In this document: one piece after another, positions 3,363 through 37,998 of the stretch
Layout of the letters: each line of letters opens with the position of its first letter
Position numbering within the stretch: the first letter of the stretch is position 1
Source: Sphingopyxis sp.
Lineage (GTDB): Bacteria > Pseudomonadota > Alphaproteobacteria > Sphingomonadales > Sphingomonadaceae
Direction of reading: 5' to 3'
Length of the DNA stretch: 64,000 bases
Assembly: GCF_035250425.1 (NCBI RefSeq)
Contig: NZ_DATFFD010000011.1
Span: 5,990 to 69,989, forward strand
Notes under the pieces: model-generated
Told to the model about the DNA's origin: nothing
Databases searched by the model: none
What the model saw: the letters and a program-made list of their open reading frames with translations, nothing else
Translations under genes and position numbers: made by a program

Positions 3363-4523
3363 TTAAAGCTGCGGGCAGATCACGTAGTTGGTGAAGCCGC
3401 CGCATCCGAAGTTGAGTTCCGAAAGCGCGGTGTTCAGTCCTTCGAGCGGAAAGACCTTGGTGTCGAACATGTCGAAGGTGACTCGCCCCATTGCGGCCAG
3501 ATCGGCCATTTCCTGGCCCTGCGCTGTCGAAAACCAGAGCGAGCCTATGAGGGTTTGTGCCTCGTTGACGAGCATGAGCATATTGAGCGGGACCGGTTCT
3601 AAGACACCACCGACATTGACGTGCGTACCGCCTTTTGCAAGCCCGCCGAACGCATCGAGGTAGGCGGCTGCCGACGATCCTGTCGAAAGTGCGTCGATCA
3701 CGACGTTGGCGCCTTCTCCCCCCGTCAGCGCGCGCACGCGCTCGCTAATCGATCCCTCCCCGGCACAGAGGACATCGATCCGGTCGGGTGCGAGCGCCTT
3801 CACCCGTTCGAGAAGCTCCGGGTTGCGACCGACCCCGAAAATTCTGGGGGCCCCCATCGCCAACGCGAACAAGGCCGCGCCGAGACCGAGCGTTCCCGAT
3901 ACGCCGTTGATCAGCACCGTGGTGTTGACATCGACGTTACCTGCCCGAACCGCGCCATAGCCCGTACCGAGATATCCCCACCGCGCTCCGACCTCGAACG
4001 GTACGTTCGGCGGGAGCTTGACGATGCTTTCTTGCGGCGCGACCATGAATTCCGCGAAGCCGCCATAGGGATAATCCGCGAGTGTCTGCGCGGATTTCGG
4101 GCCGAAGCCGAAATAATTGCTGAGCGCGCCATAATCGCAAGCGGTAGGTTGCCCGCGCCGGCAGGCGCGGCAGCTTCCGCAATAGCGCAGGGGGTTGGCA
4201 TAGACACGGTCACCGATTTCGAGCCCGTGCACGAGACATCCCTTCTCGACGATGACGCCTGCAGGGTCGAGACCGTAGATGGCCGGGAGTGTCGGCGCGG
4301 AAATGGCGGGATGGTCTCTGAGCTTCTCGAGTACCGTCGCGTAATTGGGCACAAGGCCGCAGGCGTGGACCTGAACCACAACCTCGTGCGGTCGAGGCGA
4401 TGGCCGATCGATCACATCCACCGAAAAGGGAGCGCCGACGCGATGATATCGGGCCGCTCGCATCGTCTCGTGCACCGCGGTCCCGACGCGATCGCCGTCG
4501 ATTTCCGCCATGTCGATGCTCAT
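3363..4523 (-). CDS. MDR-superfamily (Zn alcohol dehydrogenase-like) oxidoreductase with atypical active site
   Basis: Structural-Zn CGSCRAC...C, Rossmann INGVSGTLG; HACGLVPN and YGLDPAG replace the usual CHxD and GHE. Strong RBS GAGGAGG. Confidence 0.85.
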   Translation of the reverse strand: MSIDMAEIDGDRVGTAVHETMRAARYHRVGAPFSVDVIDRPSPRPHEVVVQVHACGLVPNYATVLEKLRDHPAISAPTLPAIYGLDPAGVIVEKGCLVHGLEIGDRVYANPLRYCGSCRACRRGQPTACDYGALSNYFGFGPKSAQTLADYPYGGFAEFMVAPQESIVKLPPNVPFEVGARWGYLGTGYGAVRAGNVDVNTTVLINGVSGTLGLGAALFALAMGAPRIFGVGRNPELLERVKALAPDRIDVLCAGEGSISERVRALTGGEGANVVIDALSTGSSAAAYLDAFGGLAKGGTHVNVGGVLEPVPLNMLMLVNEAQTLIGSLWFSTAQGQEMADLAAMGRVTFDMFDTKVFPLEGLNTALSELNFGCGGFTNYVICPQL

Positions 4524-4683
4524 ATATTTTCCTCCTCATCCCAGCCGCATACCGGCAATGCCCGATTTCGTGACCGGACTTGTGTTCAGGAATTTTTCAC
4601 AGAGGAGGATTTTTTGCAAGATGAAATGGTATGACAAAAAAGTTCTCATTCTTGAGCCCTAACCTCGACAGAATGGACGGCCT

Positions 4684-4696
4684 ATTGTAGGCCCAT
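4684..4696. promoter_or_regulatory. Module A operator (ATTGT-N3-ACAAT class)
   Basis: ATTGTAGGCCCAT, 11/13 match, between the divergent MDR and GntR genes. Confidence 0.55.
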
Positions 4697-4785
4697 GCGC
4701 TGTGATGGCCGTGAAGTGGGGCGGGGCTACCCGAATTTGCTTTGAAAGTGCCGTATTTACAGGGAATGCTTGGGGTGTCCGAATT

Positions 4786-35856: not shown

Positions 35857-35857
35857 T

Positions 35858-36631
35858 ATGTCAGACGTTTCCGTCGAAATGGTCGCTCCGCATGTCGCCC
35901 TCGTCACGATACGGAGGGCAGAGGCTCGGAATTCGGTGAACGCTGCCGTCGCGGCGGGGCTCGACCGCGCTGTCAAGCAGGTCGAGAGCGATCCCGACAT
36001 CTGGGTCGCGATATTGACCGGGGAAGGTGGGGTTGCGTTCAGCGCCGGTGCCGATCTCAAGGAAGTATCGGCGGGCAACATGCAGGGGTTGTACACGGCT
36101 GACGGCCAGTTCGCCGGTTTCGTCAAACATCCCCGCGACAAGGTCTGGATCGCCGCCGTTGAAGGATTTGCGCTTGCCGGAGGCTTCGAAATCGCGCTGG
36201 CCTGCGATCTGATCGTTTCAGCGGATCATTCGGTCTTTGCGCTTCCCGAGGTTACGCGTGGCCTCGTTGCCGCCGCCGGCGGGGTTTATAGGCTCGTTCG
36301 GGCCTTGCCGCGTGCTGTCGCACTGGAACTCATCGCGACAGGCGACCGGTTGCCCGCCTCGCGCGCTGCGGAGCTAGGACTCGTCAATCGGGTCGTTCCC
36401 AAGGGGGAAGCGGTTGCGGAAGCAACTGCTCTTGGCGTCCGAATCGCCGGGAACGCGCCAATAGCCGTCAGGGAAAGCCTTGGTGTCGCCCGGAGCGCGC
36501 TCGACCTTGATGATGACGCGCTCTTCTCGCGGGGTCTCGAGGCACAGTCGAGGGTCATGCTGACCGAAGACTTCAAGGAGGGACCCCGCGCCTTCATCGG
36601 AAAAAGAGCCCCCAACTGGGTCGGCCGCTGA
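35858..36631 (+). CDS. Enoyl-CoA hydratase
   Basis: AFSAGADLK, ALAGGFEIALACD, FALPEVTRGL. Confidence 0.9.
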   Translation: MSDVSVEMVAPHVALVTIRRAEARNSVNAAVAAGLDRAVKQVESDPDIWVAILTGEGGVAFSAGADLKEVSAGNMQGLYTADGQFAGFVKHPRDKVWIAAVEGFALAGGFEIALACDLIVSADHSVFALPEVTRGLVAAAGGVYRLVRALPRAVALELIATGDRLPASRAAELGLVNRVVPKGEAVAEATALGVRIAGNAPIAVRESLGVARSALDLDDDALFSRGLEAQSRVMLTEDFKEGPRAFIGKRAPNWVGR

Positions 36632-36666
36632 ACGCGCCCGACCATTTGCATTTCGCAGGAAGAAAT

Positions 36667-37998
36667 ATGACCGATCAAGCCGCAGCCGCCCGCACCCATG
36701 TTCGCGATGCCGAAATGGAAGCCCTCCGGATCCCCGGCCTTGACGGCGCCACGCCTCTCCGGGCGATCGAAAAAGTGGGGATCGTCGGGGCCGGAACCAT
36801 GGGCGGCGGCATCGCGATGAGCTTCGCGAATGCCGGAATTCCTGTCGCGATCGTCGATATGTCTCAGGATGGTCTCGACCGCGGGTTGCTGCTAGTGCGC
36901 AAGAATTACGACGCGTCGGCCGCTAAAGGCCGCATGTCCGCGTCCGACGTGGAGGCGCGGATGGGCCTACTCCACGCCTCGCTCGATTACGGCGATCTTG
37001 CGGAGTGCGACCTGATCATCGAGGCCGTGTTCGAGGATCTCGCTCTCAAGCGGCAAGTCTGCGCCGAGATCGCCGCCGTCGCAAAGACCGGCGCTGTCAT
37101 CGCCACCAATACCTCGACCCTCGATGTCGACAGTCTCGCGAGGGCGTCCGGCCGGCCGGAGGATTTCATCGGCCTCCATTTTTTCAGCCCGGCAAACATC
37201 ATGCGACTGCTCGAGGTGGTCCGCGGCCGCTGCACTGCTCCCGACGTTCTTGCCACGGTCCTGGCCTTGGCCTCCCGCATTGGGAAAACGCCCGTCGTCT
37301 CGGGCGTGTGTTACGGGTTCATCGGCAATCGCATGTCGGAAGTCTATATGCGTGAAACCGAGTATCTGCTGCTTGAGGGCGCGACCCCGAAGCAGATCGA
37401 TACCGCGATCGAGGCGCTGGGTTTTGCCATGGGGCCCTGCCGGATGCTCGACATGGCGGGGATCGACGTTGGCGCGAAAACCGTGATCGAATGGAAAAAG
37501 TCCGGACGGGCGCCTACCAACCCTAGCTATAGAGTCGTTGTCGACGAATTGTTTCGTCGCGGACGGCATGGCCAAAAGACTGGCGTTGGCTATTATCGTT
37601 ACGAGGAGCGGACTGCGGTGCCGGATCCGGATTTGGACCCGATCATCGAAGGGCTCGCGAACGCGCACGGGGTCATCCGCCGCGAGGCCATCCCGGACGA
37701 CGAGATCGTTTCGCGCCTACTTTACGCGATGGTCAACGAAGGCTGCCGAATTCTCGAAGACGGAATTGCATATCGGCCAGGAGACATCGACGTTGTCTGG
37801 ACTGCGGGATATGGTTTTCCGAAAGATCTCGGTGGCCCGATGTTCTGGGCGGAGCAGGTAGGCCTGGCAAAGATTGTGGAGGCAATTCTCGATTTCCAGG
37901 TCCGCTTCTCGGCGGAAGATTGGGTTCTTGGGTCGCTATTGTCGAAGGGAGCAAAGGAGGGGCGCGGTCTCGACGAGGTTCTGGCCGGGGCAGCCTGA
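36667..37998 (+). CDS. 3-hydroxyacyl-CoA dehydrogenase
   Basis: GAGTMGGGIA, IEAVFED, ATNTSTL, GLHFFSPA, GFIGNR, MGP. Confidence 0.92.
   Translation: MTDQAAAARTHVRDAEMEALRIPGLDGATPLRAIEKVGIVGAGTMGGGIAMSFANAGIPVAIVDMSQDGLDRGLLLVRKNYDASAAKGRMSASDVEARMGLLHASLDYGDLAECDLIIEAVFEDLALKRQVCAEIAAVAKTGAVIATNTSTLDVDSLARASGRPEDFIGLHFFSPANIMRLLEVVRGRCTAPDVLATVLALASRIGKTPVVSGVCYGFIGNRMSEVYMRETEYLLLEGATPKQIDTAIEALGFAMGPCRMLDMAGIDVGAKTVIEWKKSGRAPTNPSYRVVVDELFRRGRHGQKTGVGYYRYEERTAVPDPDLDPIIEGLANAHGVIRREAIPDDEIVSRLLYAMVNEGCRILEDGIAYRPGDIDVVWTAGYGFPKDLGGPMFWAEQVGLAKIVEAILDFQVRFSAEDWVLGSLLSKGAKEGRGLDEVLAGAA

Follow-up and report, generated by a model that had tools for sequence, protein, structure and literature searches.

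A conserved, uncharacterised catabolic gene cluster borne on a mobile element in a plant- and soil-associated bacterium, and its possible role in coumarin breakdown

How is an aromatic ring opened by a catabolic gene cluster in which no classical ring-cleavage dioxygenase can be recognised, and what substrate would such a cluster serve? The question is raised by positions 3363-37998 of a 64,000-nucleotide stretch of DNA from Sphingopyxis sp., referred to below as the window. The region forms a gene cluster that is conserved and so far uncharacterised, carried by a mobile element in a plant- and soil-associated bacterium. We read it, tentatively, as a cluster borne on a plasmid or an integrative and conjugative element (ICE) that may serve the catabolism of a coumarin-type phenylpropanoid, the ring being opened by a bicupin.

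Genes were called from codon-position GC and the open reading frames (ORFs) were then scanned against Pfam and NCBIfam. Related loci were compared by protein identity (L002-L004, metagenome contigs; L005, a Paraburkholderia metagenome-assembled genome; L008, a Nocardioides genome; L009, a minimal cluster). Every gene class listed in a first-pass annotation of this DNA was recovered within 3363-37998, with small corrections only. That annotation had also remarked on the lack of a classical ring-cleavage dioxygenase, and this was borne out: none of the ORFs scanned over 0-63.6 kb carries a Glyoxalase/VOC, LigB or intradiol domain, and the intergenic gaps inside the region are too short to leave room for a missed gene of this kind.

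In several metagenomes from the rhizosphere, plants and soil, 97-100% of the words sampled from the sequence were detected. At the far end of the window (59166-63634) a lytic transglycosylase gene (SLT) is followed by F-type transfer genes for a TraA-like pilin, TraL, TraE and TraK, which places the cluster on a conjugative plasmid or ICE. No tRNA genes were found in the window.

Gene content and the conserved module

We observed a recurring module made up of a TfdB/HbpA-type monooxygenase (MO), an atypical medium-chain dehydrogenase/reductase (MDR), the 374-aa bicupin, a protein of the fumarylacetoacetate-hydrolase family (FAH), an enoyl-CoA hydratase, a family III CoA-transferase and a GntR regulator, joined by a TonB receptor in the Gram-negative versions seen. 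The genes on which the argument turns are the following:

3363..4523, minus strand: MDR1, atypical MDR (Pfam ADH_N and ADH_zinc_N; C-terminus NYVICPQL)
4702..5535, plus strand: GntR/FCD regulator (Pfam; probable start 4837)
5725..6714, plus strand: FAH1, predicted FAH-family beta-diketone hydrolase
7742..8554, plus strand: enoyl-CoA hydratase (PRK06127 subfamily, above the curated cut-off)
8557..9732, plus strand: family III CoA-transferase
12451..14211, minus strand: MO1, TfdB/HbpA-type class A flavin monooxygenase
14312..15331, minus strand: FAH2, second FAH-family hydrolase (probable start 15280)
17358..19121, plus strand: MO2, TfdB/HbpA-type class A flavin monooxygenase
19118..19528, plus strand: 136-aa orphan protein, ferredoxin-like (ABM/NIPSNAP-like) core with a helical tail
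19637..20809, plus strand: MDR2, atypical MDR, probable ene-reductase of the HcdE family
21855..22391, plus strand: cupin178, a 178-aa cupin whose homologues partner the MDR elsewhere
23258..25486, plus strand: TonB-dependent receptor
25830..26954, minus strand: bicupin, 374 aa, candidate ring-cleaving oxygenase

The module was found in metagenomes, in the Paraburkholderia genome and in the Nocardioides genome, with additions in L002-L004, L005 and L008. Its minimal layout, L009, consists of a GntR gene, a block of bicupin, FAH, hydratase and CoA-transferase genes, and a block of MDR, MO and TonB receptor genes; its FAH belongs to the FAH1 type and its MDR, 59% identical to MDR1, to the MDR1 type. 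The layout of L002-L004 is longer, with an MDR gene; GntR, FAH, hydratase and CoA-transferase; a further FAH; a block of alpha/beta hydrolase, short-chain dehydrogenase (SDR), MO, 136-aa protein, MDR, Rieske oxygenase, cupin, alpha/beta hydrolase and TonB receptor; a block of Rieske oxygenase, bicupin and GntR; and a long acyl-CoA dehydrogenase (ACAD). L008 also carries an ACAD 69% identical to ACAD1 of the window, an APH kinase and a homologue of cupin178. Since a single-copy module stands alone in L009, the region is an elaboration of a conserved module and not, as had been proposed, a pathway built from paired paralogues: the window adds a second, older-diverged set together with inserted blocks. 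These insertions, relative to L002, are the LysR gene, a block of P450, SDR1, glutathione S-transferase (GST) and MO1, and a block of ACAD1, APH kinase and MFS transporter.

Conservation of the individual proteins was uneven. Identity to L002 was 87% for the CoA-transferase (81% to L009), 80% for the alpha/beta hydrolase ABH1 (74% to the Paraburkholderia copy), 76% for the GntR protein encoded at 4702..5535 (53% to L009), 72% for the hydratase encoded at 7742..8554 (57% to L009), 72% for MO2 and 63% for the TonB receptor (55% to L009).

Pairwise BLASTP over full length (E 1e-82 or lower) gave 49% identity for MO1/MO2, 49% for MDR1/MDR2 and 45% for FAH1/FAH2, so that these three main pairs appear from their sequences to be old duplicates. 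FAH1 and FAH2 each have their own orthologue in L002 (69-72%, with 72% for FAH2), MDR2 has one in L002-L004 (69%), and a second L002 MDR gene at the syntenic position of MDR1 is cut off by the end of the locus. The FAH duplication is thus old, and that of the MDRs probably so. Two further pairs had been put forward, and all four genes are present. The alpha/beta hydrolases ABH1 and ABH2, however, share 27% identity and hence belong to one family without forming a close pair. Between the two GntR proteins identity is 33%; the gene for the second runs on the minus strand (31011-31736), and the plus-strand ORF of 246 aa at 31074-31814, though its GC statistics look coding, is an artefact, antisense of this true gene.

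MO1 and MO2 (586-587 aa) combine an FAD_binding_3 domain with a thioredoxin-like C-terminal Rng_hyd_C domain, as TfdB/HbpA-type enzymes do. The best PDB matches of MO1 were PieE (deposited as '2,4-dichlorophenol 6-monooxygenase', E 9e-146) and HbpA (E 1e-124, residues 15-584). The 136-aa protein had no Pfam or NCBIfam match, and its homologues fall in just 17 protein clusters; a fold search with its AF2 model (pLDDT 89.6) gave weak ABM/NIPSNAP-like matches only. Its gene adjoins that of the bicupin in L005, and the two proteins, both rare, are co-distributed on the same contigs.

The earlier view that this pathway is undescribed also held. When the whole region was compared by Megablast with 72,556 plasmids, no related record was returned, hence no near-identical annotated plasmid, and literature searches brought up no cluster that combines these genes. 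None of the core enzymes received an NCBIfam name above the cut-off, the exceptions being a neighbouring HglS and generic SDR and hydratase subfamilies. The names of MDR and bicupin homologues in their sources are generic only, and homologues of the 136-aa protein are called 'hypothetical protein' at most. A single scan of genome contigs with MDR2 gave one match, an irrelevant one at 25% identity.

The MDR family and the 7-hydroxycoumarin pathway

The two MDRs had been described as atypical, and this is a family-wide property: the GHE of the catalytic zinc site is replaced by G-L-D, and the Cys4 structural-zinc motif is kept. Homologues of MDR2 number more than 1,300 and are generically named where named at all. 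By tblastn the MDR was detected on 72-74 plasmid records, the number depending on the query paralogue, and most of these plasmids come from plant-associated bacteria (Rhizobium, Agrobacterium, Sinorhizobium, Variovorax, Rhodococcus), with Pseudomonas in addition. A cupin of about 180 aa adjoins the MDR in all five plasmids examined (L010-L014: NZ_CP042276.1, NZ_CP009975.1, NZ_CP071629.1, AP027342.1, NZ_CP138497.1); in the window, the cupin178 gene lies one gene away from MDR2. Over full length, cupin178 is 39-48% identical to the three MDR-adjacent cupins compared (Agrobacterium pAt, Pseudomonas putida S12 pTTS12 and Rhizobium leguminosarum p3). PDB entry 8X0U is also a homologue of this small cupin, and a literature search on that entry found nothing.

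The plasmid pairs are annotated just as 'alcohol dehydrogenase catalytic domain-containing protein' and 'cupin domain-containing protein', and their neighbours are phenylpropanoid or catechol catabolic genes in all five. These are GntR and mhpB-C-D-F-E-T in pTTS12; a long ACAD, p-hydroxycinnamoyl-CoA hydratase/lyase (HCHL), CoA ligase and aldehyde dehydrogenase in pAt; FAH, VOC and alpha/beta hydrolase genes plus a P450 system in R. leguminosarum p3; an HpaD-like dioxygenase and a TonB receptor in Sphingobium pTomTYG74a; and a long ACAD, enoyl-CoA hydratase, FAD monooxygenase and CoA ligase in a Variovorax plasmid. The long ACAD of the window (31902..33752) is 31% identical to the one beside the pAt pair. 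A two-ring or ether substrate, which the first-pass annotation had suggested, found no specific support; these contexts point to a phenylpropanoid or coumarin.

A partial analogue exists in Pseudomonas mandelii 7HK4, where hcdDEFG and hcdABC encode a 7-hydroxycoumarin pathway and HcdE reduces, with NADPH, the C3=C4 bond in 7-hydroxycoumarin and other coumarins (PMC7913881, PMC6222606). The reduced lactone opens to 3-(2,4-dihydroxyphenyl)propionate, which is hydroxylated by HcdA, a 62-kDa class A flavin monooxygenase; the VOC extradiol dioxygenase HcdB then cleaves the ring, and hydrolysis of the product by HcdC yields succinate and the enol of acetylpyruvate (PMC7913881, PMC6222606). In the literature searched, HcdE is the sole characterised coumarin C3=C4 ene-reductase, and hcdDEFG the sole characterised system in which an MDR gene is followed by a small cupin gene.

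The reverse cloning primer of hcdE encodes a C-terminus N-Y-V-I-C-P-stop (PMC7913881). The same hexapeptide is found at residues 379-384 of MDR1, two residues ahead of its stop, and the MDRs of pAt and R. leguminosarum, like 18 of the 120 top family members, end exactly with it. The hcdE qPCR primer encodes LGTATK, and MDR2 has LGTAYA. Together these matches are good but incomplete evidence that the MDR family may be the HcdE family, and the plasmid-borne MDR-cupin pair probably funnels coumarins into the adjacent catabolic pathways.

The likeness to hcd may go further than the hexapeptide that MDR1 and the plasmid MDRs have in common with HcdE. The MDR has a small cupin gene nearby, and the order hcdE-hcdF (cupin) is that of the plasmid pairs; MO1 and MO2 are class A flavin monooxygenases, the class of the 62-kDa HcdA; and ring cleavage would be followed by C-C hydrolysis to a beta-diketo acid. 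Primer-derived HcdA peptides had no clear match in MO1 or MO2. Acetylpyruvate is the kind of substrate on which FAH-family acylpyruvate hydrolases act. In L009 an hcd-like logic can be read, with the bicupin in place of HcdB and the FAH replacing, or acting after, HcdC. By contrast with the hcd pathway and its VOC dioxygenase HcdB, the window has no VOC domain but a bicupin, and FAH-family hydrolases are prominent. It further holds a Rieske oxygenase, a P450, a CoA-transferase with a hydratase, an ACAD11-like pair, a TonB receptor and duplicated MO, MDR and FAH genes.

In L006, a Mycobacterium triplex-like contig, positions 2144-11110 hold an actinobacterial MDR relative accompanied by genes for an extradiol dioxygenase of HpaD-like type, a quinone-reductase-type MDR, FAH, ACAD and CoA-transferase and by an mce transporter operon, a set that suggests a related pathway in which a classical dioxygenase is used. 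An analogy with hydroquinone cleavage (PcpA/LinE-type) drawn from this locus was dropped, as its VOC enzyme is HpaD-like, i.e. catechol-type.

The bicupin, the proposed route and its alternatives

The bicupin ORF spans 383 aa, of which 374 follow the real start. The protein is rare. By phmmer it had no PDB match at E<=0.01, and by tblastn none on the plasmids; it matched 36 protein clusters only at E<=1e-10 in a collection of 5.8 billion proteins, and its family counts 33 representatives at E<=1e-30 among 1.84 billion, about 15 of them full length. Its AlphaFold model (pLDDT 94.3, pTM 0.92) has a bicupin fold, the top Foldseek matches being 8hfb, 1y3t and 2h0v (E 5e-21 to 2e-19). The best of all was Bacillus subtilis quercetin 2,3-dioxygenase (E 5e-21, TM 0.62/0.72), at 15-17% identity; oxalate decarboxylase, seed globulins and salicylate 1,2-dioxygenase ranked lower. 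A profile search agreed, bacterial quercetin 2,3-dioxygenases again coming out best, with no gentisate or salicylate 1,2-dioxygenase among the best 60 matches.

In the family alignment, H279-x-Q281-x4-E286...H320 of the C-terminal barrel is invariant, and the N-terminal barrel has lost its canonical ligands, just H95 being kept. The canonical His-x-His-x4-Glu...His metal site is thus absent, its second His being Gln, and one barrel appears to keep an invariant metal-type site, His-Gln-Glu-His. Compared with the quercetinase (YxaG/QdoI), its nearest structural match, the bicupin differs in having a metal-type motif in one barrel with Gln for the second His, and in an extra N-terminal helical segment and a helical linker.

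An FAH1-type gene lies directly 3' of the bicupin gene in L008 and L009, as one would expect if the one encodes a dioxygenase and the other the hydrolase that acts on its product. Where the bicupin is missing from a locus, an extradiol enzyme of the VOC or LigB type is encoded near the MDR, which fits non-orthologous replacement. Because the rare bicupin is the most constant partner of MO, MDR and FAH in five related loci, cupin-mediated cleavage, already suspected in the first-pass annotation, is the most economical reading. A bolder claim, which we hold to be doubtful, is that the bicupin is the first member of a new family of aromatic ring-cleaving dioxygenases that have a His-Gln-Glu-His site, and that it replaces extradiol enzymes in a coumarin pathway of rhizosphere bacteria.

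From gene content, homologies and conserved synteny we infer all catalytic assignments, the order of the steps and the substrate. The cluster would serve a plant phenylpropanoid that has an alpha,beta-unsaturated lactone, most likely a coumarin, e.g. umbelliferone, scopoletin, esculetin or fraxetin. The substrate would be imported through the TonB receptor, and its C3=C4 bond reduced by an atypical MDR (HcdE family) with NADPH. The lactone would then open, spontaneously or by the small cupin or an alpha/beta hydrolase, to give a hydroxyphenylpropionate. Methyl groups may be removed by the Rieske oxygenase and the P450, and a hydroxyl added by a TfdB/HbpA-type flavin monooxygenase. The bicupin would open the ring in place of an extradiol dioxygenase, and the resulting beta-di- or tri-keto acid would be cut by the FAH-family hydrolases. 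The aliphatic pieces or the C3 side chain could be processed as CoA esters by the CoA-transferase, the hydratases, the long ACAD, the 3-hydroxyacyl-CoA dehydrogenase and the thiolase; either kind of substrate could feed these enzymes. Any 4-hydroxyacyl-CoA might pass to the ACAD11-like kinase and eliminase pair. The second MO, MDR and FAH set may widen the substrate range or serve a second branch.

Several observations weigh against this route. The minimal cluster L009 has neither the small cupin nor a hydrolase, and neither DUF1185 (HcdD) nor an FMN reductase (HcdG) has a counterpart in the window by Pfam and NCBIfam. Succinate, acetate and pyruvate need no activation, so that the CoA-transferase and hydratase have no explained role in an hcd-like route. 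The suggested link to HcdE draws on about ten primer-deduced residues and on gene order. With Gln for the second canonical His and 15-17% identity to quercetinase, the bicupin could be an isomerase, decarboxylase or hydrolase, and a ring-cleaving dioxygenase may be encoded elsewhere in the genome. The occurrence of the sequence in rhizosphere, plant and soil metagenomes speaks for the route, as do rhizosphere metatranscriptomes, in which short contigs, most of them at least 99% identical, span many cluster genes and are deepest over the bicupin; this last signal is weak and may include DNA.

The same genes can be assembled differently. Bicupin, FAH (adjacent in L008 and L009) and GST recall classical gentisate logic: the side chain would be removed by CoA-transferase, long ACAD, hydratase, 3-hydroxyacyl-CoA dehydrogenase and thiolase, the hydroxybenzoate converted to a para-diol, and the bicupin would act as a gentisate/salicylate 1,2-dioxygenase, GST isomerising the maleylpyruvate-type product and FAH hydrolysing it. 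The CoA-transferase and hydratase of the minimal cluster, a FadB-like gene upstream in L009, the side-chain-removal genes beside the pAt pair and the salicylate 1,2-dioxygenase among the fold matches all suit it. Yet the bicupin has no PDB sequence match to such dioxygenases, whose structures rank below quercetinase and oxalate decarboxylase, and its His-Gln-Glu-His motif is not the three-histidine metal site that gentisate/salicylate dioxygenases use. Moreover, the GST gene is absent from L002, L008 and L009 and its product reaches 56 bits against a maiA cut-off of 171, and the monooxygenases are TfdB/HbpA-type, not of the 3-hydroxybenzoate 6-hydroxylase type. We consider a gentisate-type route unlikely. 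The fold and profile matches to quercetinases would instead lead to a flavonol or flavonoid, the bicupin cleaving the heterocycle in quercetinase-like manner, the alpha/beta hydrolases splitting the depside and the MOs hydroxylating the A ring like FdeE/IfcA. Two hydrolases, a TonB receptor and a rhizosphere habitat are compatible with this, and the fde and ifc clusters of root-associated hosts share cupins, a flavin monooxygenase and an alpha/beta hydrolase with the window. However, quercetinase identity is 15-17% and the metal motif differs; fde and ifc have no MDR-cupin pair, and the neighbours of that pair are consistently phenylpropionate/hydroxycinnamate genes, not flavonoid ones. In the fde/ifc clusters for flavonoids and isoflavones (Herbaspirillum, Variovorax) the A ring is cleaved by the VOC (glyoxalase-type) dioxygenase FdeC/IfcB (PMC11069340), which was not found in the window. 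For this last reason the fde analogy drawn earlier is weaker than that with hcd. We judge a flavonoid route decidedly improbable.

An alkylresorcinol or alkylphenol could be degraded in an orcinol-like manner, by hydroxylation to a trihydroxybenzene, ring cleavage, two successive FAH hydrolyses and beta-oxidation of the fatty acid. The orcinol pathway yields trioxo acids and acetylpyruvate, two FAHs would suit two successive beta-diketone hydrolyses, and a full beta-oxidation set follows the cluster. But this scheme leaves no role for the MDR-cupin pair, the contexts of which are phenylpropanoid, and the minimal cluster has no beta-oxidation set beyond hydratase and CoA-transferase; among the routes considered here it is a most improbable one. 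Finally, the region might not encode one pathway at all but be a mosaic of accessory catabolic genes gathered by a conjugative element, in which the bicupin is no oxygenase and dioxygenases encoded elsewhere cleave the ring. The three inserted blocks, five regulators within 35 kb, the Rieske oxygenase and P450 without redox partners in the cluster and the many non-oxygenase functions among cupins are in keeping with this. We regard it as quite unlikely, as the same core combination occurs in Proteobacteria and in an actinobacterium, and the rare bicupin and 136-aa protein travel together; both points speak in favour of a functional unit.

Coumarins exuded by roots influence both the root microbiome and the iron nutrition of plants, and in the literature searched their bacterial catabolism is genetically defined in a single Pseudomonas strain. 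If the coumarin route with bicupin-mediated ring opening is correct, the pathway would be extended to other phyla, and the widespread, unnamed MDR-cupin pair carried by rhizobial, agrobacterial, Variovorax, Rhodococcus and Pseudomonas plasmids would gain a function. The bicupin family, rare and uncharacterised, would become a candidate for a new type of ring-opening enzyme, with the orphan 136-aa ABM-like protein as a further new component, and the cluster would offer a first genetic handle on the use of root-exuded coumarins (scopoletin, fraxetin) by root-associated sphingomonad-like bacteria.

Accessory genes and surroundings of the cluster

The remaining genes of the region are:

6732..7640, plus strand: LysR regulator, inserted relative to L002
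9776..10975, plus strand: cytochrome P450, accessory, not in L002
10980..11783, plus strand: SDR1, accessory short-chain dehydrogenase (PRK07069)
11791..12426, minus strand: GST, accessory (GstA and maiA model matches below cut-off)
15509..16408, plus strand: ABH1, alpha/beta hydrolase, lactonase/esterase-like (nucleophile motif GLSMG)
16405..17148, plus strand: SDR2, short-chain dehydrogenase (PRK06125)
20806..21858, plus strand: VanA/DdmC-type Rieske oxygenase, probable O-demethylase (PDB DdmC, E 2e-66)
22395..23216, plus strand: ABH2, alpha/beta hydrolase (motif GWSLG)
27024..28334, minus strand: ACAD1, ACAD11/LvaC-type acyl-CoA dehydrogenase, predicted 4-phosphoacyl-CoA eliminase
28425..29552, plus strand: APH-family kinase, homologue of the ACAD11 kinase domain and of LvaA (4-hydroxyacyl-CoA kinase)
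29549..30907, plus strand: MFS transporter
31011..31736, minus strand: second GntR/FCD regulator, whose L002 counterpart directly adjoins the bicupin
31902..33752, plus strand: long acyl-CoA dehydrogenase (Acyl-CoA_dh_C domain; syntenic in L002)
33765..34607, plus strand: SDR3 (PRK08278)
34636..35856, plus strand: thiolase
35858..36631, plus strand: enoyl-CoA hydratase 2
36646..37998, plus strand: 3-hydroxyacyl-CoA dehydrogenase

The divergent ACAD1 and APH kinase genes match the two domains of ACAD11: ACAD1 aligned with PDB ACAD11 at E 9e-132 and the kinase with its residues 30-353 at E 1e-74. In the alignment to mouse ACAD11 (8v3u), a 14-residue Arg/His/Arg stretch and 'LADGPDEVH', which holds the catalytic Asp, are conserved in ACAD1; the residues were equated with R626/H634/R637/D753 (PMC12440821) assuming a chain-numbering offset of 1. 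An Arg-His-Arg helix together with a catalytic Asp replacing Glu is the signature of the ACAD10/ACAD11/LvaC 4-phosphoacyl-CoA eliminases (PMC12440821). ACAD and kinase domains with the same signature residues occur in LvaA/LvaC of the P. putida levulinate operon and in mammalian ACAD10/ACAD11 (PMC12440821), while in the window the pair consists of split genes within an aromatic catabolic cluster. Accompanied by these residues, the pair predicts a 4-hydroxyacyl-CoA intermediate and, inside an aromatic pathway, a 4-oxo or 4-hydroxy acid.

One metatranscriptome contig (run X26) joins position 15309 to 20890, skipping 5580 bases, with 21 letters on its shorter side; it is most likely an assembly chimera.

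Just downstream of MDR1, a gene for HglS, 2-oxoadipate dioxygenase/decarboxylase, occupies 1753-3405 on the minus strand (probable start 3138) and scores 660.8 bits with NCBIfam NF049974 (cut-off 550). It was set aside as a pathway member, since it was not seen in the related loci examined, and is probably a neighbour.

A second small catabolic set lies at 48867-57470, with GntR, a TonB receptor of 834 aa, MFS, a 179-aa cupin, an acyl-CoA synthetase (PRK08316), a 2-oxoglutarate dioxygenase of the TauD/TfdA family and a 4HBT thioesterase. At 39502-43984 on the minus strand, a 1226-aa protein with a C-terminal M1-peptidase-like domain is encoded by an ORF that overlaps the end of an ABC ATPase gene, which suggests co-transcription.

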